Shown here: in pieces, positions 36,107 to 53,325 of the stretch
How positions within the stretch are numbered: the first letter of the stretch is position 1
Layout of the letters: every line of letters starts with the position of its first letter
Assembly (NCBI GenBank): GCA_048885525.1
Contig: JBHLLP010000004.1
Location: 1 to 64,000, forward strand
Source: Candidatus Hermodarchaeota archaeon
GTDB taxonomy: Archaea; Asgardarchaeota; Lokiarchaeia; Sigyniarchaeales; SOKP01
Reading direction: 5' to 3'
DNA: 64,000 nucleotides
Program-made: the position numbers and the translations under genes
The notes under the pieces: model-generated
What the model saw: the letters and a program-made list of their open reading frames with translations, nothing else
The model's database searches: none
What the model was told of the DNA's origin: nothing

Positions 36107-36812
36107 GGATAAAATAGATTTAATTTGTGGGATAGACGAGGCTGGTAGAATTTAATTCATTTCGAATTTCATGTTAAAAGGCTCTGTCTTAGGCCCTATG
36201 GTTTTATGCGGCATTTGCTTTATTGAATCAAATCTAAGTATTCTTTCTAGAATTGGGGTTAAAGATTCAAAAAAGTTATCACCGCAGAAGAGACGACAAT
36301 TCTCTGAGATTTTGAAAAAAAGTTGTCATTCCCATAAGATAGTTGAAATTAGTGCTCAAGAAATTGATGAGAGAGTAAACAATAAAATTACTATGAATCG
36401 GCTTGAGGAGTTAAAGATGGCTGAACTTATTAACGATTTAAGACCTGATATTATATATATAGATGCTGCTGATGTTAATGAAGAAAGATTTGGAATCTCT
36501 ATTAAGCGTTTATTGAATTATAAGCCAAAAGAAGTTATTTCTAAACATAAAGCGGATGATCTTTTTCCTATAGTTTCAGCAAGTTCTATTGTGGCTAAAG
36601 ATAAAAGAGATACACTAATTAACGAAATTCATAGCAAATATGGAAATTTTGGATCAGGATATCCTTCTGACATGAGAACTATCAAATTTCTAAGAGATTA
36701 TATAAATAAATATAAAAAACCACCAAAATTCGCAAGAAAATCATGGGATACAACCAAAAAAATTATAGAACAAGAACTATCTACAAAAAAAATAACTAAT
36801 TTTCTTAACTAA
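36096..36812 (+). CDS. rnhB: ribonuclease HII, join(36096..36148,36179..36812), 228 aa after removal of a 30-nt insert
   Basis: Exon 1 MNPKDKIDLICGIDEAGR + exon 2 GSVLGPMV..GVKDSKKL..IDAAD..HKAD..VSASSIVAK..GSGYPSD; C-terminal PIP-like KKITNFL. Confidence 0.9.
36149..36178 (+). other. putative BHB-type mRNA intron in rnhB
   Basis: AATTTAATTCATTTCGAATTTCATGTTAAA; contains in-frame TAA (36153-36155); removal restores DEAGRG; BHB fold at the junctions. Confidence 0.8.
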
Positions 36813-37503
36813 ATACTTTTTTTACTACTAATATTATATGATTGGCAGCATACTTATGAATATTTACTCTCTCTATAATATTGTATCCCGCTTTTTCAAG
36901 AATTGTTTTCTCTTTTTCATAAATATACTCAGATTTTTGAAGACTGTCAATTGATTGAGATTTAATTGCAATAATAAGTATACCATTATTCTTTAAGTAA
37001 TATGCACAATTCGATAAGGCGATTTCAGCTTGATTTGGCTGCGCTACATCTTGATAAATCAAATCTATTTCTGTAAAAATATATTTAGCATATTCCTCTG
37101 GAAATCGGGCATCTCCTAATATGGGAATAATATTTGTTCTTTCTGACGTATTTTGAATTAGTTGTCTCATACTTCTTTCTGCAAATTCTACCCCATAAAT
37201 GATTCCAGAATCTATAATATCTGATAAGTGAGAGATAGAAGTACCAGAAGATGCTCCTAAATATAGACATTTTAAATCTTCTGCTAAAAAATTAGTTATA
37301 GGGTTTTTTAAAATTAAAGCTGCTAATTTACTTCTAAATGGATCCCATTCTCTATACTCCAACCCCTTATAATTAATTAGTCTTTCACCATATATATTTT
37401 TTCCAATAACTGCATTCTTAGTATATAATTTTAATTTTTCTTGATAACCAGAAATAAACACATTGGAAAACTTCGGATGGTCTCTAATTTCTATTTTAGA
37501 CAT
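36805..37503 (-). CDS. flpA: fibrillarin-like rRNA/tRNA 2'-O-methyltransferase
   Basis: EYREWDPFRSKLAA, LYLGASSGTSISHLSD, NIIPILGDA, YQDVAQPNQAEI. Confidence 0.96.
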   Translation of the reverse strand: MSKIEIRDHPKFSNVFISGYQEKLKLYTKNAVIGKNIYGERLINYKGLEYREWDPFRSKLAALILKNPITNFLAEDLKCLYLGASSGTSISHLSDIIDSGIIYGVEFAERSMRQLIQNTSERTNIIPILGDARFPEEYAKYIFTEIDLIYQDVAQPNQAEIALSNCAYYLKNNGILIIAIKSQSIDSLQKSEYIYEKEKTILEKAGYNIIERVNIHKYAANHIILVVKKVFS

Positions 37504-37533
37504 CTTATAATTTTCTCTTTATCTTCTTTTTTT

Positions 37534-38727
37534 TTATGACATTCTTTTTTTACTCTTTCCTGATGTTGCCTTTTTAGGTGGACTAGGATACTTCTCTTCA
37601 ATTTCTTTTATTTTATCTTCGATATCTTTTTTTAATTTATCACCTATAAATTCTCCCTTAAAATTGTCCACCTTAGCAGCAACTCCAATTTTTCCTGCCA
37701 CAACTCTAGCTATCTTCCCTCTTGTCCATGGTGTTGCCGATCTAATCTGATTCCATTGAAAGATTAATCCATGTTTAGGTCTTTTTTCACCCGTCTTTAG
37801 AAAACGATATAATGCTTTTTCAGCACCTAATAATTGAATTCTAGAAGCAGGCATATAAGCTAATTTCTGTAAAGAACCCGCCTTTGCTATTAATTTAGCA
37901 CCTATCAATGGACCGATAAGATTATTAATATTTGGAGCAGCTCTTTCCATTAAATCTTCTAAATGATTTTCTAATTGTTGTCGATATTCATCTAAGGAAA
38001 TTATTTGGTGGGCATAATTTTGGATTATTGAAAGATCAAAATTAGCACCCATCGACTCTGAAGCGTACTTTTCCAACATCTTAATTTTACTTTCATTTAT
38101 AACTAAATTTGTTTTTAGATTTTCGAGAGTAAAATTCTCTCTCGAACCTAATATTGAGATTAATCTTGCTAAAGTTATGTTATCTTCAACAATTTTATCA
38201 GTCAACTCTGGGAAATGCAAACCATACCATTCTCTAAGGTGACTTGAAAATAAACTAATAGATTTCTTTATTACATCTAATACAGTAATAACCTGAGTAA
38301 TTATGTTATCTGTATGACCACTTGCTTTACTTATTTCTCTTCTTGTTAATTCGTCACTTACTCTCTTATATTGATTTAGAATTTCTTCTCTGGTTTTTTT
38401 TATTCCAATTCTTTTTAAATTATCTTCTAAATTTAAACGAAAATTTTTAATTTCTATGGAATTTCTCTGAAAAAATGTTTTATATCCCAACTTTTCTGAA
38501 GTTAGCGCTTCTAATTTTTTATTATCAAATAAGAATTCATTAAAACCAGAATTTTCTAATTGTAATAAAAAATTCTCAAATACTTTTTGAATAACATTAT
38601 TTGATAACGCATCATAAAATTCAAGAATTTTTTTGTAATCATCATCAAAATCAATGAAATTTAAGATGTTTCCAGTCTCATCAAATGCAAATATTCCAAT
38701 TAAAGTATCTGCTATGTAAGATTTCAT
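37534..38727 (-). CDS. nop5: C/D box sRNP protein Nop5 (Nop56/58)
   Basis: LREWYGLHFPEL, APN, PASRIQLLGAEKAL, PKHGLIFQ, RGKIAR. Confidence 0.96.
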   Translation of the reverse strand: MKSYIADTLIGIFAFDETGNILNFIDFDDDYKKILEFYDALSNNVIQKVFENFLLQLENSGFNEFLFDNKKLEALTSEKLGYKTFFQRNSIEIKNFRLNLEDNLKRIGIKKTREEILNQYKRVSDELTRREISKASGHTDNIITQVITVLDVIKKSISLFSSHLREWYGLHFPELTDKIVEDNITLARLISILGSRENFTLENLKTNLVINESKIKMLEKYASESMGANFDLSIIQNYAHQIISLDEYRQQLENHLEDLMERAAPNINNLIGPLIGAKLIAKAGSLQKLAYMPASRIQLLGAEKALYRFLKTGEKRPKHGLIFQWNQIRSATPWTRGKIARVVAGKIGVAAKVDNFKGEFIGDKLKKDIEDKIKEIEEKYPSPPKKATSGKSKKRMS

Positions 38728-38805
38728 TATGATTGGCTAATTTATACTTATTTTTCCTTCATTAATAATTATTATAAAACTATAATCATTATTGTCTTTT
38801 AAAAA

Positions 38806-39732
38806 ATGCTAGAAGTAAATCTTTCTGGTTTAAAATTAAAATCTCCTATTATTTTAGCCTCAGGAATATTAGGCGTATCTTTTTCTTCAATGAAAAGAGT
38901 AATTGATGCTGGAGCTGGTGCTGTCACTACAAAATCTATTGGATCAAAACCAAGAAAAGGATATAAAAATCCATCAATAATAGAGATATATCCTGGAACA
39001 TTTATGAATAGTGTTGGCCTTGGAAATCCTGGGATCAATGCATTTATCTCAGAAATAAATGAAATTAAAAAAAATAACATTCCGTTGATAGTAAGTGTTT
39101 TTGGTAATACAAATGAAGTTTATCTTGATGTAGCAAAAAGAGCTGAAAAGGCAGGTGCCGATGCAATAGAAATTAATATTTCGTGCCCTCATGCTGAAGT
39201 AGCCTCTATAGGAATTGATAAAGATTTAACTTACGAAATAGCAAAATTATTGAAAAATAACCTTACTATACCTCTTTTTGTTAAATTAAATCCTAATGTG
39301 ACAAATATAAAAGAGATTGCCTTAGCCGCCGAGAAAGGTGGTGTTGACGGAGTAGTTGCTATAAATACAGTATCCGGAATGAAAATTGATGTGAACACTA
39401 AAAAGCCAATTTTGTCCCATGGAAGTGGTGGATTATCTGGAAAGGCAATACATCCTATAGCGGTGAAAAAAGTATATGATTTATTCAAAGTTCTAAAAAT
39501 TCCTATAATTGGATGTGGGGGAATAGATTCTTGGCAAGATGCTATAGAGTTTTTTTTAGCAGGAGCTTCAGCAGTACAAATTGGTACAGCTTTATATAAA
39601 GGAACTGAAGTAATCACTGATATTATTGATGGAGTAACTCGATATCTTAGAGATAATGGATATCTTTCTATTAATGATATAATTGGGTTAGCACATCAAG
39701 CTAAAACTCAGGAGGTGCCGAATTTTGACTGA
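38806..39732 (+). CDS. pyrD: dihydroorotate dehydrogenase B catalytic subunit
   Basis: NSVGLGNPG, EINISCPH, AINT, GGLSG, IIGCGGI, AVQIGTA. Confidence 0.95.
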   Translation: MLEVNLSGLKLKSPIILASGILGVSFSSMKRVIDAGAGAVTTKSIGSKPRKGYKNPSIIEIYPGTFMNSVGLGNPGINAFISEINEIKKNNIPLIVSVFGNTNEVYLDVAKRAEKAGADAIEINISCPHAEVASIGIDKDLTYEIAKLLKNNLTIPLFVKLNPNVTNIKEIALAAEKGGVDGVVAINTVSGMKIDVNTKKPILSHGSGGLSGKAIHPIAVKKVYDLFKVLKIPIIGCGGIDSWQDAIEFFLAGASAVQIGTALYKGTEVITDIIDGVTRYLRDNGYLSINDIIGLAHQAKTQEVPNFD

Positions 39733-40579
39733 AAATATCATAAAAACAATAAAAATTCATAAAATTAGAGATGAATGTGAGGGAGTTAAAACTATTGTTT
39801 TTAATATGAAAACAAACGATATTCACAAATATATTGTTCCAAAACCGGGACAATTTGTTATGGTTTGGGTACCTGAAATTGATGAAATCCCAATGTCTAT
39901 ATCTGATTGTGATGATAATGGCAATTGGGCTATTACAGTGAAAAATGTTGGCGAATGTACAAATGCTATGTATAATTTAAAAATTGGTGATTATATCGGG
40001 ATAAGAGGACCATTAGGTAATTATTATAAAATTCCAGATGATTATTCAAAAGAACTCTTCTTAATTGGTGGTGGAATTGGTATGGTTCCATTAAAATTCC
40101 TTTCAACTGAACTAATAAAGAGAAATATAAAACATACGATTATTGAAGGTGCTAAATCTAATAATGATTTAATGTTTATAGAATATTTTAAAGAGTTAAC
40201 TGTTGGGTGTACTGAAATTCAATATTGTACAGATGATGGAAGTTATGGAACAAAAGGAGTTGTTTCTGATGTTTTTAAAAGATTGATTAAAGAAATTTTG
40301 AAAAATCAGTTATCAAAAGTCATTGTCTATTCTTGTGGTCCAGAAAGAATGTTGTTTAATTTATTTCAAATATGCCAAGAATATCATATTGAATTTTATG
40401 CAAGTCTTGAAAGGATTATGCGGTGTGGCTGTGGTTTATGTGGCTTATGTGCTTTAGATCCATTAGGATTACTTGTATGTAAAGATGGACCAATTTTTGA
40501 TTCAGATACTCTAAAAAAGATTCAAGATTTTGGAAAATACCAAAGAGACTTCACTGGAAAAAAAATCTTAATTGAATAA
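39725..40579 (+). CDS. pyrK: dihydroorotate dehydrogenase electron transfer subunit
   Basis: PGQFVMVW, RGPLGN, GGGIG, TDDGSYG, CGCGLCGLC...CKDGP. Confidence 0.95.
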   Translation: MTENIIKTIKIHKIRDECEGVKTIVFNMKTNDIHKYIVPKPGQFVMVWVPEIDEIPMSISDCDDNGNWAITVKNVGECTNAMYNLKIGDYIGIRGPLGNYYKIPDDYSKELFLIGGGIGMVPLKFLSTELIKRNIKHTIIEGAKSNNDLMFIEYFKELTVGCTEIQYCTDDGSYGTKGVVSDVFKRLIKEILKNQLSKVIVYSCGPERMLFNLFQICQEYHIEFYASLERIMRCGCGLCGLCALDPLGLLVCKDGPIFDSDTLKKIQDFGKYQRDFTGKKILIE

Positions 40580-40695
40580 ATAGAAATTGTAATTTAAATT
40601 GCTTAAATCACAAAATATTTACTTAATCTCTTAATATATTAATTGAGAAATATAAAATCTTTAGAGTAAATCAAATAACTTTTGCTTTAAAAATA

Positions 40696-42330
40696 ATGGG
40701 TACTTTAGAAATTGAAAATTATGAAATCGTTAAAAAAATTTCACGAGAAATTATAGATTATTTAATTAAGAACCCAGAAACTTCTCGCGAAAAAATAACA
40801 AATATCAAGGGAAGGATAGGTAAGAAATACAAATACAATAAAGTTATAAAAAATGCTATTATCTTAGATTACGCAACATCTGAAGAAAAGAATATTATAA
40901 CTCAGATTCTGAAAAGAAGAAAAACCAGAACTTTATCAGGAGTATCTGTAATAGCAATTATGACAGAACCTCTTCCTTGTCCTGGAACTTGTATATATTG
41001 TCCAGGACAAGATTCTCAACCTGGAAAAAAAGCAGCCCAATCGTATACAGGTCAAGAACCTGCTGCTATGAGATCTATTCATAACAATTATGATCCTTAT
41101 TTACAAGTACAAAGTAGAATTAATGATTTAGAAGCAATAGGGCATAAAGTTGATAAGATTGAATTAATCATTATGGGAGGTACTTTTTTATCTACTGATC
41201 TAAAATATCAAGAAAAATTTATAAAAGGAGCCTTAGAAGGAATCATTGAACAAAGAGTGAGTAGCTTAGAAATTGCTAAAAAACTCGCTGAGACCTCTAA
41301 AAGACGTGTTATTGGTATAACCATAGAAACAAGACCTGACTATTGCAAAGAAAAAGATATAGATCGAATGTTGAACTATGGAACAACGCGTGTTGAAATC
41401 GGAATTCAGACACTATATGATGAAATCTATGAGTTAGTGAAAAGGGGTCATTCTACTTTTGATAGTAAAGAAGCGATAAGAATTGCTAAGGATGCTGGAT
41501 TAAAAGTTAATGCTCATATGATGCCTAATTTACCCGGAGCAAGTCTCGAGACAGATATAGATATGTTTGAATCATTATTTTCAAATGTTGATTACCGTCC
41601 TGATATGTTAAAAATTTACCCTACTGTTGTTGTTAAAGGAACCAAATTATATAATTGGTGGAAAGAAGGGAAATATTCGCCTTATTCAGATAAAGAACTA
41701 ATCAATTTATTAGCTGAAGTGAAAATGAAACTCCCTCCCTATGTTAGAATTCAAAGGATTATGAGAGATATTCCTGCAAATTTGATTGAAGCAGGTTGTA
41801 AAAAAAGCAACCTAAGACAATTGGTACAAAATAGGTTAATCCAGATGGGCATCAAATGTAATTGCATTCGATGTAGAGAATACGGACTTACTAAAAGAAA
41901 ACAACTAATTGATAAAAATTATATCGATAATGTTAAATTATTTCGTTTCAATTATGACGCTTCTTCAGGAAATGAGATCTTTTTATCCTATGAAAATCAA
42001 ATCGAAAACTATTTAATAGGATACCTGCGCTTAAGAAAACCATCTGAATTCGCTTATAGACCTGAATTAAACGACGGAAAAACAATGATCGTAAGAGAAA
42101 TTAAAATTGTTGGTGAACTAGTTCCAAAAGATACGAAACCAAATTATTACACTCAAATTCAACACAGAGGATATGGAAAATTATTAATGGAAAATGCTGA
42201 AAAAATATCATCCGAAGAGTTTGATGCTAAAAAGTTAGCAGTAATAAGTGGTTTTGGAGCAAGAGATTGGTTCTATGATATTGGATATAAATTAGATGGT
42301 GTATATGTCTCTAAAAGCCTTAATCATTGA
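40696..42330 (+). CDS. elp3: tRNA U34 carboxymethylation radical SAM/GNAT enzyme Elp3
   Basis: RTLSGV, CPGTCIYCPG, QSYTGQEP, ETRPD, RIQRIMRDIP, CIRCRE, QHRGYG. Confidence 0.96.
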   Translation: MGTLEIENYEIVKKISREIIDYLIKNPETSREKITNIKGRIGKKYKYNKVIKNAIILDYATSEEKNIITQILKRRKTRTLSGVSVIAIMTEPLPCPGTCIYCPGQDSQPGKKAAQSYTGQEPAAMRSIHNNYDPYLQVQSRINDLEAIGHKVDKIELIIMGGTFLSTDLKYQEKFIKGALEGIIEQRVSSLEIAKKLAETSKRRVIGITIETRPDYCKEKDIDRMLNYGTTRVEIGIQTLYDEIYELVKRGHSTFDSKEAIRIAKDAGLKVNAHMMPNLPGASLETDIDMFESLFSNVDYRPDMLKIYPTVVVKGTKLYNWWKEGKYSPYSDKELINLLAEVKMKLPPYVRIQRIMRDIPANLIEAGCKKSNLRQLVQNRLIQMGIKCNCIRCREYGLTKRKQLIDKNYIDNVKLFRFNYDASSGNEIFLSYENQIENYLIGYLRLRKPSEFAYRPELNDGKTMIVREIKIVGELVPKDTKPNYYTQIQHRGYGKLLMENAEKISSEEFDAKKLAVISGFGARDWFYDIGYKLDGVYVSKSLNH

Positions 42331-42422
42331 GATTTCATCATGCTTCAAAAAATTTATCTTATTAAAGCTTTTTATATAATATATTTTGTGTATATATATA
42401 TGTCAATAATCTAGAATTATGA

Positions 42423-43511
42423 TTGAAAATGGCTACTGAAAGGTCTTTATCAAAAAAGAAAATAACCCAACAGACAATTTCCATTTCACCCGCTCTAAAA
42501 GATCGAATTGAAAGATATATTCATGAAAATAATAAGAAAAATCCAAAAGATAAGAGATTTAAAAGTATTTCTGCTTTTTATAATGATGTTATGGAGAGAG
42601 CTTTGGACAGTTTTGAAAAAGGTAAAACACTTGATGACTTTGAAGCTTTTGCAGACACTGAAATTAAGGGATTTTTCGATAAAATTTCCTTTAAGGGCGT
42701 AATCCCCTATTATGAAACTGCTTTAAGAACCAATCGTTATACACCTCCTTTTTTTGAAAAAAATATCTTTTTTTACTTAACTCTAAGAAACCTTTATTTG
42801 GATCGAATGGATCCTTATGATATTAGCAGTATTAAGGGTATGTTCAATAGAATCAAAAACTATATGCTTTCAAATAATCTTACAAAAGAAGTTAATTTGG
42901 ATCTATTTACTGGAAAGACTGGAAAAGAGTTATCTGGAGTATTTGAATATGCAGGATTATACAAAAATTTAACTATTGAAAACTGTAAATACAATGCTGC
43001 AATTTTTGGATTGTTAGGTGTGAAATTAACTGACTTTTTGTACTCAGATAAAGATAATTACTTTAGATTTGATTTAAAAACTACAGATTTGTTTTATAGA
43101 ACAGATTTAGCAAAAAAAGAGAGAATAAAACTCATTAACTGTAATCTGTCTTATTTCTTCAATTTTCTCAAAATTATTGATGACAAGGATTATTATTTTT
43201 GGATGAAATTAGCTGAGGATAAAAATGTAATTATTAATTTTAATACTGAAGACATTCAAAATGAATGGGTAAATTTAATCAAGAAGGAAACTGATGAGTT
43301 CGGAGAAGAAGAGGATTTTCACCTTTATATGTTAAAATTTTTTAAGAAATTACATTGGATTGAAATTGAAAGTGAAAAGGATCTTATCTTTCAAATTAAA
43401 TTATCTAGAAAAAAATTTCAAAATGAAAGAGAAATTTTATTGGAGAGCCTTTCTAAAAAATCAGAAATCTTACAAAAAAATGGGAAATATCAAATAAAGA
43501 AATTAAGTTGA
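42423..43511 (+). CDS. N-terminal ribbon-helix-helix-like protein, paralog 1
   Basis: TQQTISISPALKDRIERY...RFKSISAFYN; collinear similarity to the next ORF. Confidence 0.75.
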   Translation: MKMATERSLSKKKITQQTISISPALKDRIERYIHENNKKNPKDKRFKSISAFYNDVMERALDSFEKGKTLDDFEAFADTEIKGFFDKISFKGVIPYYETALRTNRYTPPFFEKNIFFYLTLRNLYLDRMDPYDISSIKGMFNRIKNYMLSNNLTKEVNLDLFTGKTGKELSGVFEYAGLYKNLTIENCKYNAAIFGLLGVKLTDFLYSDKDNYFRFDLKTTDLFYRTDLAKKERIKLINCNLSYFFNFLKIIDDKDYYFWMKLAEDKNVIINFNTEDIQNEWVNLIKKETDEFGEEEDFHLYMLKFFKKLHWIEIESEKDLIFQIKLSRKKFQNEREILLESLSKKSEILQKNGKYQIKKLS

Positions 43512-43879
43512 TAATCATTCTTAAGTTTAAAGTCTAAAAAAAAAGAATAGATTTCGTCCTTATTATTCCCTTTTATTCCCCGTTTTTTGTCTTTGTGGAT
43601 GGACACCTGCGATCCCCTTGATTTTTATTGCAATAAATTGCCCATGTATAATTTTGTTAATGACTATTTAAAGATATATGTTAATAATCTTCTTTTATAA
43701 TCTCATATTAAATGTTTCTAAAAAACAAATACTAAAAAATTAACAATACAAATATATTATTAGAAAAAAATGTATCTTGTAAATATTAAATTAGCCTCTA
43801 CCTTCATTCTAATCCTCAGAAACGCTTACATAATTGAACTTTCTAACTAATATAAATTTAAAAATGCTTTAAAATTAAT

Positions 43880-44959
43880 ATGATTATGACATCAAAAAAA
43901 TATCTATCAAACAAAAGAACAACTCAACAAACCATTTCAACATCACCAGCTATTAAAGATTGGGTGAAAAGATATGTAAATGTAAAACATACAAAAAATC
44001 CTAATGATGAGAGATATAAAAGCATTTCAAGTTTTTATAATTATATTATGGAGAATGTACTAAAATTTTTTGAAGAAGGGAAAACTATTGATGACCTTAA
44101 AAGAGTTGAGGATAAAAAAATTAAAGAATTTTTCGATAGATTTACTTTTAAGGCTACAATACCACTTTATGAAATGGCAATTGAACCTAATAAATATACA
44201 CATTTTACATTCGAATTTAATACCCGTTTTTTGTTAATGTACCTAGATTTTTTCAGAAGTGAGGTCAAACCCCATAATTTTAACGATATTAAGTTATTTT
44301 TTGAAAAGATAAGAACTAGATATGCCACCACCAATATATCTAAAGATATGAAACTGCAATTATTTCCTGTTAAAAATAAAAGGTCTACTAAAGGAACCTT
44401 AGAATTTATTGGAAAATATAAAAATCTGCATTTTGAAAATTGCAAGTTTTTCGCTGCGGTTTTTGGTATTCTAGGGGCAAGAGTAACTGATTTCATTTAT
44501 TCTCCAGCAGATTATTATTGCAGGTTAGATCTTTTAGAAACAGATTTACTTTTTAAAAAGGAATTGGCTAAAAAAGAAAGATTAAAACTCATAAAAGAAA
44601 ACGTTGATTTTATGGTAAATTATAATAGAATACTTGACGATAATGATAAATATTTATGGATGAATTTAGGGGAAGACAATGAATTATTTATAAGTTTTAA
44701 AACCAAAATTGCTTTTAATAAATGGATTAAAACAATTGAGAGGGATTTAGGAAAATTTGGTACACAAGAAGACTTTCTTAGTAAAATATTACAATTCTTC
44801 AATAAACTCCATTGGATAAGAATTGAAAATATTAAAAATCTATCATTTCGAATCGACCAAGCTATCGAAAAAAGTACTGAACAGAAGCAAATGTTAATAG
44901 ATTATCTCTCAGAGCATAGTGTAATTACTCAAAACAACGGTATTTATTATTTAAAATAA
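43880..44959 (+). CDS. N-terminal ribbon-helix-helix-like protein, paralog 2
   Basis: TQQTISTSPAIKDWVKRY...RYKSISSFYN; shares ENCK..AA.FG.LG, LAKKER.KLI, KLHWI.IE with previous ORF. Confidence 0.75.
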   Translation: MIMTSKKYLSNKRTTQQTISTSPAIKDWVKRYVNVKHTKNPNDERYKSISSFYNYIMENVLKFFEEGKTIDDLKRVEDKKIKEFFDRFTFKATIPLYEMAIEPNKYTHFTFEFNTRFLLMYLDFFRSEVKPHNFNDIKLFFEKIRTRYATTNISKDMKLQLFPVKNKRSTKGTLEFIGKYKNLHFENCKFFAAVFGILGARVTDFIYSPADYYCRLDLLETDLLFKKELAKKERLKLIKENVDFMVNYNRILDDNDKYLWMNLGEDNELFISFKTKIAFNKWIKTIERDLGKFGTQEDFLSKILQFFNKLHWIRIENIKNLSFRIDQAIEKSTEQKQMLIDYLSEHSVITQNNGIYYLK

Positions 44960-45044
44960 CCTAAATAAAAATATCCAAAATCTTTTTTGAAAATAATAAT
45001 AAGATTTATTATTTCATAAATTATAGTATTTCACTATTATTAAA

Positions 45045-46982
45045 TTGAAAAATCGATTGAATATGGAAGAATTTGATTATGAAAAATTAGGTCTCAAGTG
45101 CGGATTAGAGATTCATCAACAACTTGATACAGAAAAAAAGTTATTTTGTAGATGTCCAGCTAAACTTCAAGGAACTAGAGAGCCGGATTTTACTATGCAT
45201 CGAGAAATGAGACCTGTTTTAGGTGAAATGGGAACATATGATAAAGCAATGTTAACAGAATACGAAAAAGGAATGGGAATTACTTATGAAGGGTATAATG
45301 ATGTAGTTTGTACCTATGAACTCGATGATACCCCTCCATTTTCCTGTAATACAGAAGCAAGAATGGTTGCCTTACAAATTGCTATGCTTCTTAATGCCAA
45401 TATAATTGAAGAAATGCATGTCTGTAGAAAAAACTATTTAGATGGGAGTGTCCCTTGCGGATTTCAACGTACAATGATACTTGGCACTGATGGCTATATA
45501 ACTTTAGAAAATGGTAAAAGAGTTAGAATAGATATCTTAAGTCTGGAGGAAGAAGCTGCAAGAAAAATTAAAACCGAAAATAAAATGAATTTTTTTCGTT
45601 TAGATCGATTAGGAATTCCATTGGTAGAAGTAACAACTAAACCCGATATAAATTCTCCCTATGAATGTCGGGAATGTGCTGAAAGAATTGGATTGTTATT
45701 ATGGTCAACAAATGTAAAAAAAGTTCTTGGATCAATTAGACAAGATGTTAACGTAAGTATTGAAGCTGGAACAAGAATTGAAATAAAAGGTGTACAGAAA
45801 TTAGGATGGATTCCTATCTTGATCAATCATGAAATTTCACGTCAATTAAAGCTCCTTGAAATTAAAAAAGAACTTGAAAAAAGAAGAATAGATCCTAATA
45901 ACCTTCCAGAAAATTCTATAGATTTAACTGATACCTTAGCTAAAGGGAAATCCAATTTCATAATGAAAGGTATTAAATCAGGAAAAAAATTTTATGGGAT
46001 CAATTTTAAGGGATTTAAGGGCATTTTTGGAAAAAATTTAATGGAAGATTATAGATTTGGAACTGAAGTTAGTAGTAAAGTAAAGCTGATTTCTGGTTTG
46101 AGAGGAATTATTCACTCTGATGAAGATTTAAATAAATACAATTTTTCACAGCAGGATATTAAGAAAATTAAAGAGAAATTAGCATCTAAAGAAAATGATT
46201 GTTTTGTATTAATATTAGGATCCCAGAAAGAATTAAAAAAAGCCGTAGGTGTTATTATCGATCGAGTAAAATTTGCTTTTAATGGAGTTCCTCCAGAAAC
46301 TAGAAGGGCTCTCGAGAATGGAAATACAGAATTTTTAAGAGAACTCCATGGGGGTGCTAGGTTATATCCTGACACTGATTCAGAAGCCATTTTTAATTCC
46401 GAAGAAGAAATTAATGAGATTAAGAAAAATCTCCCAAAATATCCATGGGATACGATAAAAAATTATTCTAAAAAATATGAAACTGAAGAGAGATTGATAA
46501 AAGACCTTATTTTTACAGGTAAACTCAAATTATTTGATAAATTAATAAAATTATATCCTGATAATCCCTCTTTAATCTTCACGACTCTATTAGAAACTAC
46601 AACTGCCCTTAGAAGAGAAGGGAAGAATATTGAAAATATAACTGATAATGATTTTATTGAAATTTTTAACCTTTTAAAAAAAAATGAAATAAGTAAAGAA
46701 GCAATTGAGGAGTTAATGAAAATTAAAGCAGATACTCCTAAATCTTCTATTGATCTGATTAAAAAGAAATTAAAATTAGAAACTATTTCTCAAGATGAAC
46801 TTAAACAATTGATAGTTGAGATAGTTAACACAAACTCTAATTTGATAAAAGAAAAAGAAATGAGAGCAAAGGGACCTTTAATGGGAGAAGTTATGAAAAA
46901 AGTTCGAGGAAAAATTGATGGTGCTATTGTCTCTAAGGAATTAGAAAATATTATAAAAGAAAAAATAAGGGAGTTGAAATAA
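45045..46982 (+). CDS. gatE: Glu-tRNA(Gln) amidotransferase subunit E
   Basis: LGLKCGLEIHQQL, RLDRLGIPLVE, IRQDVNVSI, GVPPETR, ARLYPDTD; start likely ATG of MEEFDY. Confidence 0.96.
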   Translation: MKNRLNMEEFDYEKLGLKCGLEIHQQLDTEKKLFCRCPAKLQGTREPDFTMHREMRPVLGEMGTYDKAMLTEYEKGMGITYEGYNDVVCTYELDDTPPFSCNTEARMVALQIAMLLNANIIEEMHVCRKNYLDGSVPCGFQRTMILGTDGYITLENGKRVRIDILSLEEEAARKIKTENKMNFFRLDRLGIPLVEVTTKPDINSPYECRECAERIGLLLWSTNVKKVLGSIRQDVNVSIEAGTRIEIKGVQKLGWIPILINHEISRQLKLLEIKKELEKRRIDPNNLPENSIDLTDTLAKGKSNFIMKGIKSGKKFYGINFKGFKGIFGKNLMEDYRFGTEVSSKVKLISGLRGIIHSDEDLNKYNFSQQDIKKIKEKLASKENDCFVLILGSQKELKKAVGVIIDRVKFAFNGVPPETRRALENGNTEFLRELHGGARLYPDTDSEAIFNSEEEINEIKKNLPKYPWDTIKNYSKKYETEERLIKDLIFTGKLKLFDKLIKLYPDNPSLIFTTLLETTTALRREGKNIENITDNDFIEIFNLLKKNEISKEAIEELMKIKADTPKSSIDLIKKKLKLETISQDELKQLIVEIVNTNSNLIKEKEMRAKGPLMGEVMKKVRGKIDGAIVSKELENIIKEKIRELK

Positions 46983-48341
46983 ATGAGTGAAAAGTTAAAA
47001 GGTTATAGAGGAGAAGGTAAAAAGATCTTGGAAAAACATAAGATTGAAATTTGGGATATTGTTCAAATTAAAACAGAAAAAACAAATTATGAAGGGATTA
47101 TATTACCCAGAACTGAGTATTCTGCTCCAAATTTCATAAATATAAAATTAGAAAATAACTACAATGTTGGAATAAAGGTTTCTGAAATACATGAAATAAA
47201 AAAAATTGGTAAAAGAGAAGCATCGTATAAAATTCCAGAGAAAGAATTTCCTATAAATAAAAACCTACCAAATTTGATATTGTTTGGAACTGGTGGAACG
47301 ATTGCCTCAAGATTAGATTATACAACAGGTGCAGTAATACCTTCATTTACTCCGGGAGAATTATTTAGCGCGGTTCCAGAATTAGCAGAAATATGTAATC
47401 TTAAATGTGAAAATGTTTTTGAAATCCTCTCGGAGAACATGAAACCAGAAAACTGGAAAAAATTAGCTGAAAAAGTTAAAGATGCCGCTAATTCAGGAAT
47501 TGATGGCATTATTATTGGCCATGGAACTGATACAATGTCATTTACTAGTGCAGCCCTTTCTTTCATGGTAAAAGATTTAACAGTCCCTGTAGTCCTTGTT
47601 GGTAGCCAAAGAAGTTCTGATAGACCTTCTTCAGATGCAGCTTTAAATTTAATTAATGCTGCTATTGTTGCTCAGTCAGATATAGCCGAAGTTGTCATTT
47701 CTATGCTAGGCTCTCCATCTCATGATTATGGGTTAATTCATAGAGGAACTTTAGTTAGAAAAATGCATTCTTCGGTTAGAAATACTTTTCGAACTATAAA
47801 CAGTATACCACTCGGTATCGTCCAAAATAGAAAAATCAAAATGTTCACAAATGATTATAAGAAAAGATCCAAATTAGAAACAAACACAAATACTAAGTTT
47901 GAAGAAAAAATTGCTCTTATATATTCATACCCAGGGACTGACTACGAATTAATTAATTTTTACATTGATAATGGATACAAAGGAATTGTAATTGCTGGAA
48001 CTGGATTAGGACATGTATCTACTACCATTTATGATTCATTAAAAAGAGCTATTCAAGAAGGGTTGACCGTTCTCATGACTACTCAAACACTCCATGGATT
48101 CGTTGGTATGAATGTTTATTCCACTGGAAGAGAATTACTAAATATGGGTGTGATTCCTGGAAGAAATTTATTACCAGAAACAGCCTATATTAAACTTGGT
48201 TGGGTTCTTGGACAAACTAATAACCCTAAAGAAATAAGAGCTTTATTATTAGAGAATATAGCAGGTGAGTATTTAGAAAGGGAGATTCCCATTGCGTTCA
48301 ATTATAATATCGATGAATTATTAAAATCCAAGAAACTCTAA
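46983..48341 (+). CDS. gatD: Glu-tRNA(Gln) amidotransferase subunit D
   Basis: KLENNYNVG, GTGGTIASRLDY.TGAV, HGTDT, QRSSDRPSSD, GTGLGHV. Confidence 0.97.
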   Translation: MSEKLKGYRGEGKKILEKHKIEIWDIVQIKTEKTNYEGIILPRTEYSAPNFINIKLENNYNVGIKVSEIHEIKKIGKREASYKIPEKEFPINKNLPNLILFGTGGTIASRLDYTTGAVIPSFTPGELFSAVPELAEICNLKCENVFEILSENMKPENWKKLAEKVKDAANSGIDGIIIGHGTDTMSFTSAALSFMVKDLTVPVVLVGSQRSSDRPSSDAALNLINAAIVAQSDIAEVVISMLGSPSHDYGLIHRGTLVRKMHSSVRNTFRTINSIPLGIVQNRKIKMFTNDYKKRSKLETNTNTKFEEKIALIYSYPGTDYELINFYIDNGYKGIVIAGTGLGHVSTTIYDSLKRAIQEGLTVLMTTQTLHGFVGMNVYSTGRELLNMGVIPGRNLLPETAYIKLGWVLGQTNNPKEIRALLLENIAGEYLEREIPIAFNYNIDELLKSKKL

Positions 48342-48473
48342 ATTTACAAAATTATACCTCCTTGTTAAGAGAAAAATCTAAAGTTAAATTTTCCAATAAA
48401 TTTCACGTAAAAAGATAAAAAATTTATAGTTTGAATAATTTAAGTTCATATTCAGAGAATGTGGTGAAGTAGT

Positions 48474-49202
48474 TTGGGAAAACGAATTTTAGCGCAGCGG
48501 AAAGGCAGAGGCGTTCTAGGTTTTAGATCTCCTAGTCATCGTCATATAGGAGAAGTAAAATATCGCCCATTCAAAAAAAATGAAAAATTATTTAAATTTA
48601 AGGTAATTGACCTCATTCATTCTCCAGGAAGAGGTGCTCCAGTAGCCCGCATACAATATGAAGATAAAGGAAAAGGGCTTTGGCTTCCCCCAGAAGGAGT
48701 TTTTATAGGACAAGAATTTATTCAATCTAAAACTGGATATGGTCAAAATGTAGAAGTAGGAAACATTCTACCCTTAAAAAAAATGCCTTTAGGAACTCTA
48801 GTCTTTAATATCGAATCAACACCCCAAGATGGAGGAAAATTCGCACGAGCATCTGGAGTTGCCGCAATCGTTAGAAATAGATCTGGGAATAAAGTCGAAC
48901 TTTTATTTCGGTCTAAAAAAACTAAATGGATAAATGAAAATTGCCTAGCTACAATCGGGGTTGTTGCCGGAGGAGGACGTACAGACAAACCTTTCTTAAA
49001 AGCGGGTAATAAATTTCATTATGTAAAATCTAAAGCTAAAAAGTGGCCAGTGGTGAGAGGAGTCGCTATGGTGGCAGCAAGTCATCCTTATGGTGGTGGA
49101 GCTAAGCAATCTCCGCATAAATCCACGACCACTTCGAGGAATGCTCCTCCTGGAAGAAAAGTAGGACAAATTGCAGCTAGGAGAACTGGACATCAGAACT
49201 AG
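48474..49202 (+). CDS. rpl2: 50S ribosomal protein uL2
   Basis: MGKRILAQRKGRG, PGRGAP, DGGKFARASG, WPVVRGVAM, HPYGGG, APPGRKVG.IAARRTG. Confidence 0.98.
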   Translation: MGKRILAQRKGRGVLGFRSPSHRHIGEVKYRPFKKNEKLFKFKVIDLIHSPGRGAPVARIQYEDKGKGLWLPPEGVFIGQEFIQSKTGYGQNVEVGNILPLKKMPLGTLVFNIESTPQDGGKFARASGVAAIVRNRSGNKVELLFRSKKTKWINENCLATIGVVAGGGRTDKPFLKAGNKFHYVKSKAKKWPVVRGVAMVAASHPYGGGAKQSPHKSTTTSRNAPPGRKVGQIAARRTGHQN

Positions 49203-49347
49203 TTTTTTCTCCTCTTATCAATCTACCAATCTTTCCTACCCAATGAAATCTCGATAGATTTTTATATTCTATTTATTCTTATATATTTGGATATATAATT
49301 CAACATAAATATATTTTTAAATATATTAATAAAAAGAATAAGTAAGT

Positions 49348-49947
49348 TTGGACCTAGAAATTTCAAGTGGATCTTTATGGTATTCAACCCATTATTTTGA
49401 ACTTAAAATAAAAATAACTGGGGCTGGAACAATTGATGATCCATATCTGTTTACTACTAAAAACAGATATCCTGATGAATCTTTTGAAATCAGAATAAAT
49501 AATTCGAATAAATATATTGAATTTATCAGAATTAATTTAAAAGCTCTTTACTTGAAGAACAATAAAAACGTTAAAATATCAAATGCAAGGATAAAGGTTT
49601 TAGGTTTGGGAAATTCTTCAAAAATTTCAATTGAAAAAGTTAATATTCTAAAACAACTGAGGCTCGATAAAGTTCAACATATAAAAATCGCCGATTGTAA
49701 TATAAAGAAACTATATGCATTTTCGGGTGATCAAATCTATATATATAATAGCACGATCAAAACAATTTCAAGAAAATCTAAAGCGAATCTAATTTTTCAA
49801 AACGAACAACGTGCTCAACTTCTTAAAAGTAAGTCATATCAACCTGATAAACATTTAGAATTGAATATATGGATCTGTGATCAATGTGGATCTGCAGTGG
49901 ATTTGTTTTCAAGATTTTGCCATGAGTGTGGTTATAGATTAAAATAG
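49348..49947 (+). CDS. beta-helix-like protein with C-terminal zinc ribbon
   Basis: GAGTIDDPY, repetitive beta strands, CDQCG...FCHECG. Confidence 0.7.
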   Translation: MDLEISSGSLWYSTHYFELKIKITGAGTIDDPYLFTTKNRYPDESFEIRINNSNKYIEFIRINLKALYLKNNKNVKISNARIKVLGLGNSSKISIEKVNILKQLRLDKVQHIKIADCNIKKLYAFSGDQIYIYNSTIKTISRKSKANLIFQNEQRAQLLKSKSYQPDKHLELNIWICDQCGSAVDLFSRFCHECGYRLK

Positions 49948-49968
49948 TATTAAATTGAATGAAAACTA

Positions 49969-50667
49969 ATGCCGCAAGAAAAGAGTAAGAAAAAAGCAGT
50001 TTTGATCCCAGTATTAACAATAATTGTAATTCTATGTATTGCTACATTTCATGATCTAAACACTGAAATGAATTTTGCTTTTCATGAAGATTCTGGAGAA
50101 GAACAAGGAAACCTTATTTTAGAAAGAAAAGCTTCTTATGAAATCATTTGGGAGTTCAAATCTACAAATACTATGAAAGTATTAATAATCAAAAAAAGTA
50201 GTCTTGAATGGTATAAAAGAGTCGTCTCTGAAATAGCTGAAGAATATCATATAGATACTAGTTATTATTGGAATGAATTTCTTGAAAGCCACTACGTCTC
50301 GCAGGGAAAGTACGAAGATTCGGGTAAATTCAAAAGCACTGATAATACATTATATTATATTGAGTTTGTAACTTCAGGGACATTCACTTATCATGTCAAT
50401 TGGGATCCCTTCGCTATCGACTTAAAATGGATCTTTTTTACTCTTCTTGGTATTTTCACAACAATTGGTATATTCTCTTATATATTCCGTTTTAATTATT
50501 TAATTAAAATTAAAAGGAATATTAAGAAATATAATTCATTGAAAGCACCAACACTGGATAATTGTGCATATATAATTACATATAAATGTGAAATTTGTGG
50601 AATAAATCTGGATTTGGATGCTATTTTCTGTCATAAATGTGGTTCTCGACTAAACAAATATAAATAA
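49969..50667 (+). CDS. membrane protein with C-terminal zinc ribbon
   Basis: Two TM segments; CEICG...FCHKCG. Confidence 0.75.
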   Translation: MPQEKSKKKAVLIPVLTIIVILCIATFHDLNTEMNFAFHEDSGEEQGNLILERKASYEIIWEFKSTNTMKVLIIKKSSLEWYKRVVSEIAEEYHIDTSYYWNEFLESHYVSQGKYEDSGKFKSTDNTLYYIEFVTSGTFTYHVNWDPFAIDLKWIFFTLLGIFTTIGIFSYIFRFNYLIKIKRNIKKYNSLKAPTLDNCAYIITYKCEICGINLDLDAIFCHKCGSRLNKYK

Positions 50668-50726
50668 TATATTAAAAGATTGCGCCCTCTCAACCCTTAA
50701 CAAATAAAAAAATGGAAAAGTAAAAA

Positions 50727-51623
50727 TTAGCTTAATGAAGCATTAAAATTGAAGGAAATGTTATGTAAAAATTCCTTATATCTTGAGCGAAGAGTTACCT
50801 CTGTGACTCCTATCACTCGTGAAATATCTTTTTGACTTACCTTGTGATTCCTCAGTTTTGATACGAAATATATTGAACCAGCACACAAACCTTTCGGATC
50901 TTTACCGCATATAGACGTGTTTTCGATGAAATTCTTTAATACATTTATTGATTCCTTCTCAATATTAATATCCAAACCTAAATCCGCGCAATAGCGAGGT
51001 ATAAGGGATACAGGATCAATATGAGGTGATTTTAAGTTCAATTCTCGTACTAAGATCTTATAGCATTTTTTCACAATATTATTGTTTATTGATGCCTCCT
51101 CTAAGATTTCCTGAAGAGTAATTGGAACCCTTTCTTGTTTGCATACATAATATGCACATGCTGCTATCATACCATTTATAGACCTGCCCCTTAAGAGATT
51201 CTTCTTAAATACTTCCTTATAAAGTCGAACAGCTGATTTCTTTACCCTCTCTGGAAAATTTAAATTGCCACCAATTCTCTTTAGTTCGGTTATAGCAATA
51301 AGCATATTCCGTTTCTCCCAAGATAAATGAGTATTCCATTTTGCTGCTCTTCTTAAATCAGGATTTTTAATTTTTGTCCTATCAATAATTGTACTAAGAC
51401 CGATATCAGGCATCAAAATTGAAATTGGACAACCAGTTCTTTCTTTTTTATCCTTTTCTTGTTTTGAATAAGCCCTTATACCGCTATGACTTACATCAAC
51501 TGCCTTTTCAGATAGAACTAAACCACAATGTTGACAAACAATTTCCCCTCTTTGATGAATATCAATCGTGGAACCACTACATTCAGGACAAAAGCCTGTT
51601 TGCTGTGATACTTCAATAAACAT
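50727..51623 (-). CDS. tfb: transcription initiation factor IIB paralog
   Basis: CPEC..GEIVCQHCGLV, ERTG.P, RGRSI, GKDPKGLCAG, GVTEVTLRSRYKE. Confidence 0.93.
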   Translation of the reverse strand: MFIEVSQQTGFCPECSGSTIDIHQRGEIVCQHCGLVLSEKAVDVSHSGIRAYSKQEKDKKERTGCPISILMPDIGLSTIIDRTKIKNPDLRRAAKWNTHLSWEKRNMLIAITELKRIGGNLNFPERVKKSAVRLYKEVFKKNLLRGRSINGMIAACAYYVCKQERVPITLQEILEEASINNNIVKKCYKILVRELNLKSPHIDPVSLIPRYCADLGLDINIEKESINVLKNFIENTSICGKDPKGLCAGSIYFVSKLRNHKVSQKDISRVIGVTEVTLRSRYKEFLHNISFNFNASLS

Positions 51624-51703
51624 TACCCATAACCCTTTACTTTATTTTCAAAAAACTATGATATTAGTTTTTTTTCACATAACTTAGGAAAAAAAAATTT
51701 TTT

Positions 51704-52033
51704 TTGGTAGCAAAAAAAATATTTTTTGTTACAATTATTGCTGTTAAAGGTTATAAATGTAAGGGAGTAGTAAGTGGGACAAAAGGTTTAAAAGAGTTAA
51801 AAGGTTGGATCACCAAGCTTATTCTAGTAGATATAATCTTACCGGATATTTTTGAATATGAAATTTGTAAAATGATTAAGGATCATAAAGTATATCATGA
51901 GTTTCACGCCTATCTACTTACAGCAATATAAAGGAGCGAAGTATAGAAATAGATGGATGAAATCAAAACTGATGTTTATATCTTGAACCCTTTCGATTTT
52001 TCTGATTTTGAGGTGGTATTCCAATATTTATAA
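51704..52033 (+). pseudogene. decayed single-domain response regulator (receiver)
   Basis: KLILVDIILPD..YEICKMIK..LLTAI*RSEV*K*MDEIKTDVYILNPFDFSDF..; three internal in-frame stops. Confidence 0.8.
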
Positions 52034-52088
52034 TATTGATTTTTTTAATTAAATTAAAACTTAATCTTATTAATTTTTTATAAAGTAG

Positions 52089-52192
52089 CGGGCTATGAGG
52101 GAATCACGTTAGCTGGATTGCTTCCAACTGATTTCGAACCCCCGACCGTCAGGTTAAGAGCCTGCTGCGCTACCTGCCTGCGCCAATAGCCC
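52089..52192 (-). tRNA. tRNA-Lys(CTT) with 30-nt T-loop intron (59/60) at 52103..52132
   Basis: GGGCTAT/ATAGCCC acceptor, CT-CTT-AA anticodon loop, GGGGG-TTCGAA[intron]T-CCCTC; 74 nt after splicing. Confidence 0.9.
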
Positions 52193-52230
52193 ATCTATAA
52201 AAAATTTCTTAATAGCTGTAATACATAAAA

Positions 52231-52332
52231 CGCAGATGGAGGGACTCGAACCCCCGAGCGCTTACGCGCACCGGCTCACTTGATTATTAAAAAATCTCAA
52301 GGCCGGCGTCTTACCAGCTAGGCTACATCTGC
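52231..52332 (-). tRNA. tRNA-Ser(TGA) with 19-nt canonical 37/38 intron at 52277..52295
   Basis: GCAGATG/CATCTGC acceptor, long variable arm, CTTG/CAAG central BHB helix. Confidence 0.92.
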
Positions 52333-52511
52333 ATTTTTAAGACAACTAAGAAATTTTTAATACTTGATGATAATATGCTATTAAAGTAGAGTATATGCTA
52401 GAAAATAAATTTTTTTTTATTTTTCATTGACTTTATCACTATTTTCATCTTCTATTTAAAGAAAACTATAAATTTTATGCTACATTGACCTCTAATTGAG
52501 ATGGTGAAGAA

Positions 52512-53000
52512 ATGAGCGGGGCAAAGGATTTTCGTTATTTAATACCTGAAAGTTTATTCAAAGAAATTACCCAAAAGGCAGCAGAGGAGTACCCTCTGAT
52601 AGTACATGGGTGGTTATTTGCTGATAGAAAAGAGAATTTTGGAATTTGTACCAAATTTATCATGAACCCTGATTTACGTAAAAGTAAAGTCCATGTTAAA
52701 CCAAGAAGTTGGATGCGATACAAAAAATCAAAAATTTATAACATGCGTAAATTTAAAGCTGAAATGGGTGTAGATATTGTCTGGATGTGGCATAGTCATC
52801 CTTCTGGAAATGAAAAACTTCATGCGATTGATAAGCGAATATTGAAGTATCTCTCTAATGGTGTTATGATTATTGTTATCCCACCAGCATCGGATAAAAC
52901 TCCAGAGCAAAAACCACATCTAGTTGGATGGTATTACGATAAACGTTATACCAAAAAACCGATTATCGAAAAGATGGTCTTTGAGATAATTTCCGAATGA
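52512..53000 (+). CDS. JAB/MPN domain protein with atypical JAMM motif
   Basis: YPLIVHGWL; WHSHPSGNEKLHAID. Confidence 0.8.
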   Translation: MSGAKDFRYLIPESLFKEITQKAAEEYPLIVHGWLFADRKENFGICTKFIMNPDLRKSKVHVKPRSWMRYKKSKIYNMRKFKAEMGVDIVWMWHSHPSGNEKLHAIDKRILKYLSNGVMIIVIPPASDKTPEQKPHLVGWYYDKRYTKKPIIEKMVFEIISE

Positions 53001-53129
53001 TCGAAAATGAAAAATTGAAATATCTCCTTTTCTTTTATTTTTTTACTTCCTATAATAAAATATTAAAATTTTAAATTGTTATATTGAATTGGTAATTTTT
53101 ATAAACAACATTAAAATTTACTTTTATAT

Positions 53130-53212
53130 GCTCAGGTCGCTTAGCCTGGTAGAGCGCCGGTCTGCTAAACCGGTGTCCAATGGATTCGTGGGTTCAAATC
53201 CCACCCTGAGCG
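53130..53212 (+). tRNA. tRNA-Ser(GCT), intronless
   Basis: GCTCAGG/CCTGAGC acceptor, CCGGT-CTGCTAA-ACCGG, long variable arm, GTGGG-TTCAAAT-CCCAC. Confidence 0.95.
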
Positions 53213-53219
53213 TAGATGT

Positions 53220-53325
53220 GGGCCAGTGGTCTAGTGGTTATGACGTCGCGCTTACACCGCGAAGGTCGAGAGTTCAATTAGAAAAATGATTTCTATTTTT
53301 CTTGAAAACCTCTCCTGGCCCACCA
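53220..53325 (+). tRNA. tRNA-Val(TAC) with 30-nt T-loop intron (59/60) at 53279..53308; encoded CCA
   Basis: GGGCCAG/CTGGCCC acceptor, CT-TAC-AC loop, GAGAG-TTCAAT[intron]C-CTCTC; perfect TTCA/TGAA central helix. Confidence 0.92.

Follow-up and report, generated by a model that had tools for sequence, protein, structure and literature searches.

Hairpin micro-introns of about 30 nt that probably form one class in tRNA and protein-coding genes of a Loki-type Asgard archaeon

The window analysed here is a 64-kb stretch of DNA (C4:1-64000) from a 3.58-Mb metagenome-assembled genome (MAG; 87 contigs, 29.4% G+C, rated 99% complete) whose close relatives, traced through the protein encoded by rnhB, are MAGs labelled Promethearchaeota/Promethearchaeia (Loki-type Asgard archaea). 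It carries three inserts of 30 nt, one in rnhB, the gene encoding RNase HII, and two in the T-loops of tRNA-Val and tRNA-Lys. Our analysis suggests, with a probability of roughly 75%, that these inserts represent one lineage-wide class of hairpin micro-introns of about 30 nt, which is hosted by both tRNAs and mRNAs and forms the motif known as bulge-helix-bulge (BHB) with the flanking exons. The hosts of this class in the genome comprise position 59/60 of the T-loop in at least seven tRNAs, other tRNA positions and at least four to five protein-coding genes. A fixed-size BHB class shared by tRNA and mRNA had been proposed in an original prediction made from the window, and this part of it was upheld: the intron measures 30 nt in 8 of 8 tRNA-Val, 10 of 12 tRNA-Lys, 29 of 30 rnhB and 7 of 7 AMP-phosphorylase sequences.

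The comparison set, obtained by a GTDB-style draw, combined 24 congeneric species with 16 genomes belonging to three further families of the order; for rnhB, 30 distinct sequences were gathered from the 24 genus genomes and further MAGs. The tRNA-Val, tRNA-Lys, rnhB and AMP-phosphorylase collections were anchored on exons, so that intron length was not used for selection, and the inserts of other tRNAs were sized by motif-free Rfam alignments.

The rnhB, tRNA-Val and tRNA-Lys inserts

Each of the three 30-mers is present as a single copy, exactly at the position given in Table 1. The layout originally proposed for them (1 nt, 9-nt arm, 5-nt loop, 9-nt arm, 4-nt central-helix strand, 2 nt) fits all three, and the rnhB and tRNA-Val inserts do share the loop ATTTC at intron positions 11-15. 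Together with the exons they form a 4-bp helix between two 3-nt bulges (perfect in tRNA-Val, with four pairs in rnhB and three of four in tRNA-Lys), and this motif is flanked by additional helices, i.e., the T-stem or an exon-exon helix outside and the 9-bp intron stem inside, corresponding to the hBHBh′ arrangement.

The rnhB reading frame runs through GIDEAGR, enters 30 nt containing an in-frame TAA and continues with GSVLGPMV. Removal of the 30 nt restores the Arg codon and the motif GIDEAGRG, as in the uninterrupted genes of the outgroups. Exon 2, which is 62-80% identical across the genus, matches the Pfam family RNase_HII over profile positions 9-199 of 199 (E 1e-38); the catalytic Asp and Glu of GIDEAGRG (profile positions 1-8) are encoded by exon 1 and absent from this match. 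The insert is present at the same site in all 30 sequences (29 nt in the single one that deviates from 30), always with an in-frame stop, and is missing in the other families of the order, six orthologues from which have an uninterrupted G-x-DEAGRGP. In the unspliced mRNA, the reading frame ends at the intron TAA and a 213-aa open reading frame (ORF) begins at 36171; the presence of an ATG in just 18 of the 30 inserts speaks against a restart from this position as a conserved feature. Splicing would yield the contiguous RNase HII peptide GIDEAGRGSVLG. DNA contigs from two sediment samples bridge the insert without gaps, indicating that it is not an assembly artefact.

The BHB structure proposed for rnhB is maintained across species. 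In the alignment of this motif, 92% of the cells are paired, a share that falls to 23-47% once the 3′ partner is shifted by 1-3 columns; the shares of the individual helices are 95%, 95% and 89%. Five pairs have changed on both sides, and 0 of 500 shuffles reached any of five measures. Position 36146 covaries with 36173, its partner in the fourth pair of the central helix (U-G, U-A, C-G and G-C among species), and all four central-helix pairs are Watson-Crick in several species (L019, L022, L023). The ancestral rnhB stem was likely a perfect 9-bp helix, the copy present in this genome having decayed to 7/9.

In their unspliced form, the tRNA-Val and tRNA-Lys genes are missed both by ARAGORN and by Rfam at the gathering score; the strands of their T-stems are separated by 37 bases instead of 7. 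Exact removal of the 30 nt leads ARAGORN to call tRNA-Lys(ctt) and tRNA-Val(tac). In both genes, T54-R57 pair with the four bases located just before the final two of the intron, producing the 4-bp central helix, and the T-stem provides the outer helix. The tRNA-Val intron forms a perfect BHB (TTCA/TGAA, bulges ATT and AAC, 9-bp stem, fold z = -3.9), and in the tRNA-Lys intron a single U-U falls in the central helix and a single C-A in the stem. The contrasting intron of tRNA-Ser(UGA), predicted to be 19 nt long, was confirmed as such by Rfam alignment (22 positions versus 3 in the Rfam model) and is reported by ARAGORN as i(39,19).

Several observations concern the surroundings of these genes. 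The genes for tRNA-Ser(GCT) and tRNA-Val(TAC) lie on the same strand, 6 nt apart (window 53129-53325), and the latter encodes its CCA end, which the tRNA-Lys and tRNA-Ser genes do not. In four relatives (G017, G024, G013 and G021; L049, L052, L056 and L057), tRNA-Val(TAC) carries, beside the T-loop intron, a second A+T-rich insert located upstream, in the D-arm or anticodon-stem region, which is absent from this genome. Finally, a sediment contig matches the window up to 53278, the final exon base before the tRNA-Val intron, and continues with the 3′-exon-like sequence CCTCCGCGGGCCCACCA; the contig thus shows a Val-like tRNA that lacks the intron and belongs to a related organism from this sample.

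Table 1. Coordinates of the introns and their host genes. Positions without a contig label refer to the window.
Feature	Position	Strand	Description
rnhB exon 1	36096..36148	+	MNPKDKIDLICGIDEAG and the two leading bases of the Arg codon; read from sequence
rnhB BHB, 5′ exon side	36135..36148	+	Outer helix 36135-36142; central helix TGGT 36143-36146; bulge AG/A 36147-36149
rnhB intron	36149..36178	+	30-nt BHB intron, exact match; arms 36150-36158 / 36164-36172
rnhB intron parts	36159-36163; 36173-36176	+	Loop ATTTC; central-helix strand GTTA; in-frame TAA
rnhB BHB, 3′ side	36177-36179; 36180-36188	+	3′ bulge AA/A; outer helix
rnhB exon 2	36179..36812	+	Final base of the Arg codon, then GSVLGPMV
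tRNA-Lys(CTT)	52088..52192	-	ARAGORN call only with intron removed
tRNA-Lys intron	52103..52132	-	30 nt, T-loop 59/60; relaxed BHB, loop AGCAA
tRNA-Ser(UGA)	52231..52332	-	19-nt canonical anticodon-loop intron; contrast case, outside the class
tRNA-Val(TAC)	53220..53325	+	Encoded CCA; ARAGORN call only with intron removed
tRNA-Val intron	53279..53308	+	30 nt, T-loop 59/60; arms 53280-53288 / 53294-53302; loop ATTTC 53289-53293
tRNA-Val central helix	53303-53306; 53273-53276	+	TGAA pairs with TTCA
AMP-phosphorylase intron	C6:109044-109073		30 nt; interrupts DKHS-T-GGVPGNK
Ras-family GTPase intron	C39		32 nt; interrupts LLLWD / IGGQ; Pfam Ras 1-54 in exon 1, 57-160 in exon 2
cdhA intron	C2:17156	-	31 nt, in Cys-rich motif; exon 2 of Prismane family
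Zinc-ribbon/LOR protein intron (candidate)	C7:104009		30 nt

Protein-coding hosts, length and loop across the genus

Of 23 genus species, 7 carry the AMP-phosphorylase intron, against 0 outgroups; the first exon of the gene ends in Glycos_trans_3N, and the match of the second to Glycos_transf_3 begins at position 11. One species has CAC AGT in place of CAT AGC, a synonymous change in the exon, and its intron reads GCTG instead of GTTA, which is a direct covariation of a coding exon with the intron. For two of the mRNA cases, covariation, conserved stops and intron-free outgroups together provide a proof of the comparative kind. Among the other protein-coding hosts, no Pfam match was obtained for exon 1 of cdhA. 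All 37 mRNA-intron orthologues examined hold an in-frame stop, and the stop-free copies that had been expected to be hidden as 10-aa insertions were not seen among them. A stop-free hairpin in a ferredoxin-like ORF (C26:35404) was rejected for want of BHB geometry, and sites that partly match the rnhB intron (C17:19470 and C22:44850) or the tRNA-Val intron (C6:67867) were discarded as having no hairpin or lying in an open frame.

The tRNA-Val introns of constant length include one that is G+C-rich and unlike the rest. The two tRNA-Lys copies of the genus that depart from 30 nt measure 31 nt, and a single copy from another family measures 35 nt; the tRNA-Lys introns fall into at least four sequence classes that have no recognisable similarity. 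In the other tRNAs of this genome, Rfam gave insert sizes of 33, 30, 30-31, about 40, 30-31, 29, 30-31, 17, 32, 22, 32, 19, 78 and 31 nt; by the motif-free alignments, 11 of 16 tRNA inserts are 29-33 nt long. The length peak near 30 nt is real and a property of the class. Essential tRNAs of this genome also contain introns of 17, 19, 22, 33 and 78 nt, and the three tRNA-Ser genes have short canonical introns. Since introns of 17-78 nt must be spliced in the same cell, the enzyme is not limited to 30 nt, and the hard endonuclease ruler offered in the original prediction as a cause of the fixed size is unlikely. The 78-nt insert lies in the anticodon loop of a class II tRNA (C32:24040-24260, L124) and may represent either a single long intron or two introns, one nested in the other. 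A tRNA-Sec gene was also located at C8:66346-66433.

The loop was compared across 11 independent 30-nt introns from this genome, of which three lie in mRNAs, seven in T-loops and one in a variable region. Positions 14-15, which form the loop end, are TC in 9 of 11, for an expectation of 0.5 from composition (binomial P about 6e-11), and no other dinucleotide position exceeds 2 among these introns. The TC loop end is found in 7 of 9 introns that were identified independently of the model described below. Position 29 is A in all 11, and only A or T occurs at positions 1, 2 and 30. Among the 30 rnhB orthologues, which have loops such as ATTTC, AATTC, ACTTC and TCTTC, TC is invariant and the first three bases vary; the AMP-phosphorylase introns exhibit TTTTC, ATTTC, AATTC, ATTTA, ATCTA and ATATA, and the GTPase intron AATTC. 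In view of the TC bias across independent introns, the ATTTC match between rnhB and tRNA-Val expresses a consensus of the class rather than a link peculiar to these two hosts; at 17/30, their overall identity lies close to the 95th percentile for the best pair of shuffled sets. Length is over-represented, as is the loop, the opposite of the broad distributions named in the original prediction as the mark of a chance match.

Twenty-seven sequences representing five host contexts were used to build R1, a covariance model of 47 columns. Its members score 35-52 bits, with tRNA-Val at the top (52) and tRNA-Lys at 37, and three T-loop introns outside the training set score 39, 39 and 24 bits, against a background of at most 16 bits in the window. 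Genome searches with R1 added at least two further 30-nt T-loop introns, with the loops TTTTC and ATGTC, and gave matches in 24 of 24 genus genomes and in at least half of the outgroup genomes; only the best 150 of about 8,800 candidates were scored per genome and three training members were missed, so that these figures are lower bounds. The matches in outgroups indicate that the design predates the genus, at least in tRNAs. In an alignment of the five host contexts (A2, columns 6 and 10), the exon strand of the central helix always starts with T and the first bulge base is always A, corresponding to an insertion-site pattern T-N-N-N-A-N immediately before the intron; cdhA has T in the bulge.

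In structure-only BHB scans of the genome, both strict and scored, the true 3/3 bulge geometry was matched by decoy geometries at every length, and scans for ORF bridging combined with BHB rules gave no clear excess over decoys. A score combining position weights and pairing recovered 10 sites, versus 3 in the reversed-genome control, at a score of at least 16, nearly all of them known. Because 2-4 mismatches are tolerated in real introns and the A+T-rich sequence produces an excessive background, no genome-wide count is given. A SPLITS-like search (removal of candidates followed by ARAGORN) solved some tRNAs and left others ambiguous, and Rfam alignments were used instead. Three further sites with the 30-nt design, C2:92701 (-), C17:57022 (+) and C30:36282 (+), with loops TTTTC, ATTTA and ACTTC, have scores that fall inside the range given by the reversed-genome control; open frames of 34+156 and 28+340 codons would be joined across the first and the second of them.

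Mechanism, origin and alternative explanations

The proposed intron would consist of one A/T base, a 9-bp stem, an A-W-T-T-C pentaloop, four bases pairing with the upstream exon and an A-W end. A heteromeric (alpha-beta) endonuclease would cut each 3-nt bulge behind its second base, and RtcB would then join the exons, restoring the T-loops of the two tRNAs (Val and Lys) and the RNase HII Arg codon within GIDEAGRG. Candidates for both enzymes are encoded in the genome, with matches to the EndA family (PF01974) at C2:50632 and C9:105848 and to RtcB (PF01139) at C56:14072. Asgard EndA is reported to be an (alpha-beta)2 enzyme with a broad-specificity loop (PMC5829648). Selection would hold the length and the TC loop end constant, and stems would drift through compensatory changes. 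Since introns of other lengths must also be spliced in the cell, the 30-nt design is not required for cleavage as such, and the shared features would more probably reflect a common origin, or a common step of folding or propagation, than a need of cleavage. A group I or group II self-splicing intron, which has a ribozyme core hundreds of bases long, was dismissed, the inserts being 30 nt long and Rfam finding no intron family in the window.

Some observations weigh against a single class of spliced introns. The TC loop end is absent from the tRNA-Lys and tRNA-Asn introns, and the cdhA and GTPase introns are unmatched by R1, i.e., the class is not strictly 30 nt. In the rnhB copy of this genome, the central helix has 1 Watson-Crick and 3 G-U pairs, the stem is paired at 7 of 9 positions and the fold is no better than that of shuffles (z = -0.6 to -1.0). 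Scans that give no excess in a genome of 29% G+C do not provide a clean census. Lastly, a search for RNA runs containing this DNA returned none, and the splicing of rnhB and of the other mRNAs is deduced only from comparison between species.

The distribution of the introns within the genus is patchy. The tRNA-Val intron is present in 8 and absent from 9 of the genomes, the AMP-phosphorylase intron present in 7 and absent from 16, and the tRNA-Lys intron, found in 12 copies, is missing in at least 11 species. Two introns located in different tRNAs share 22 of 30 positions, above the 99th percentile of shuffles. Two T-loop introns of different tRNA genes 13 kb apart (C1:49064-49093 and C1:36101-36130) have nearly identical 3′ halves (TTTCGAGCTTT.TAGAAA), the best sign of intron-to-intron descent in the genome. 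The mean identity between introns is 12.4, versus 9.2 in shuffles. Patchy presence, the unrelated tRNA-Lys sequences and the 22/30 pair fit a turnover of introns. No copy of any intron was found within 5 mismatches elsewhere in the genome, nor any close tRNA-mRNA pair, and searches of the 99%-complete MAG for RVT_1 and Y1_Tnp gave no match, other families of insertion enzymes lying outside these searches; these negative results argue against recent copying. A census of Asgard tRNA introns found no general route of arrival (bioRxiv 10.64898/2026.10.13.758758). The original suggestion of an intron family is supported as regards the class; its movement between tRNA and mRNA by reverse splicing is unproven, given the lack of near-identical copies and of RVT_1 and the 17/30 identity of rnhB and tRNA-Val. 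The patchy presence in the genus and the single tRNA-tRNA pair are the sole indirect hints of such movement. We advance only tentatively, at well under even odds, the stronger proposal that Loki-type Asgard archaea host self-propagating 30-nt micro-introns, in which a factor would use loop and length to insert or maintain them, and any RNA whose exon completes a BHB could be colonised. A DNA hairpin element of the REP/IS200 type was dropped as a source after no Y1 transposase was found, and an origin from CRISPR repeats and a loop mimicking the T-loop were dropped for lack of support.

The shared features might instead be convergent, with introns of independent origin on which size and loop are imposed by an endonuclease ruler, by a loop-binding cofactor or by a need of RtcB circularisation, in the absence of descent or mobility. 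This would agree with a length that stays at 30 nt though the tRNA-Lys introns are unrelated in sequence, with the TC loop end that is invariant in the rnhB orthologues among otherwise variable loop bases, and with the failure to find near-identical copies between sites, an RVT_1 reverse transcriptase or a Y1 transposase. However, introns of 17, 19, 22, 33 and 78 nt that lack this hairpin are present in needed tRNAs, and the identity of 22/30 between introns of different tRNAs points to descent; we consider convergence an improbable explanation. Mere coincidence, i.e., three unrelated 30-nt inserts with ATTTC occurring by chance in two of them, the genome being A+T-rich, would account for the different loop of tRNA-Lys and for the rnhB/tRNA-Val identity, which the best pair of shuffled sets can approach, but is contradicted by independent loci and species, in which both the length peak and the loop bias are seen, and its probability is negligible.

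It is also very improbable that the rnhB insert is something other than an intron, the gene being a pseudogene, a split gene restarted at ATG 36171 or a case of 30-nt ribosomal bypassing. Such explanations draw on the stop and the ATG inside the insert, on the 213-aa ORF and on the search for RNA runs, which returned none that would document splicing. They are difficult to reconcile with flanks that are open and conserved in 30 species and with the maintenance of insert length and pairs; moreover, the ATG is missing from many of the inserts, and a protein begun at 36171 would be devoid of the catalytic Asp and Glu. Bypassing of the T4 gene 60 type needs matching take-off and landing codons. 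The codons at the ends of the rnhB insert differ (AGA before it, AAA/AGG at its end), and the covariation fits a BHB instead.

Significance and comparison with known systems

What appears to be new is that one micro-intron design serves tRNAs and several mRNAs across a genus of Promethearchaeia. Gene callers will truncate or split such genes, as illustrated by rnhB, which is called as a 213-aa ORF without catalytic residues, and tRNA finders miss the intron-bearing tRNAs. The fixed size and loop offer a handle for finding the whole class, together with a testable hypothesis on how archaeal introns arrive, and gains and losses can be observed thanks to the patchy presence in closely related species. 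These introns bear on the question of whether interruptions of protein genes were already tolerated in the archaeon ancestral to eukaryotes. If the class were indeed self-propagating, the closest prokaryotic relatives of eukaryotes would harbour spliceosome-independent mRNA introns that are gained and lost between species.

In eukaryotes, the HAC1/XBP1 mRNAs are spliced independently of the spliceosome, IRE1 cutting at stem-loops and a tRNA ligase or RtcB joining the exons. The process proposed here is similar in involving a short mRNA intron, excision by an endonuclease and joining by a tRNA ligase, whereas HAC1/XBP1 splicing depends on the IRE1 nuclease and is a stress-regulated process with a single target; nothing in our data shows regulation. 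Fujishima and colleagues reportedly described in 2010 an intron transposition among Thermoproteales tRNA genes that left clear sequence families across sites. The notion of BHB introns spreading to new sites is common to both. In the present case, the resemblance is mostly one of length, loop end and terminal bases, with one 22/30 tRNA pair.

Introns at non-canonical tRNA positions in other archaea (Thermoproteales; Freyr-, Jord- and Atabeyarchaeia), with BHB or relaxed BHB structures, resemble those described here in their 4-bp helix and two 3-nt bulges, their T-arm sites, the broad-specificity (alpha-beta)2 endonuclease and their gain and loss between relatives. Heavy loads of tRNA introns have been published for some Asgard lineages (PMC11291895; bioRxiv 10.64898/2026.10.13.758758). 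The Asgard census gave medians of 22-23 nt and did not treat mRNA, whereas in the present genome 30 nt and one loop consensus dominate and protein genes are included. A full-text literature search for BHB introns in mRNAs of Asgard archaea returned nothing.

Introns of archaeal protein genes spliced by the endonuclease have been published only for cbf5 (PMC2738675; references in PMC5829648). The cbf5 intron of Crenarchaeota (Watanabe 2002; Yoshinari 2006; Yokobori 2009, PMC2738675) is likewise a BHB intron within a protein-coding gene that has been gained or lost among relatives. As in cbf5, the rnhB, AMP-phosphorylase and Ras-family GTPase ORFs are interrupted by a BHB intron whose removal gives a conserved protein. 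The cbf5 intron is removed by the tRNA splicing endonuclease, a removal that would operate here by analogy. However, cbf5 is a single host gene in another phylum, and the hosts identified here are at least four to five unrelated genes (rnhB, AMP phosphorylase, cdhA, the Ras-family GTPase and the LOR-domain candidate). Unlike the cbf5 case, the mRNA introns, of 30-32 nt, have the same design as the tRNA introns of their own genome.

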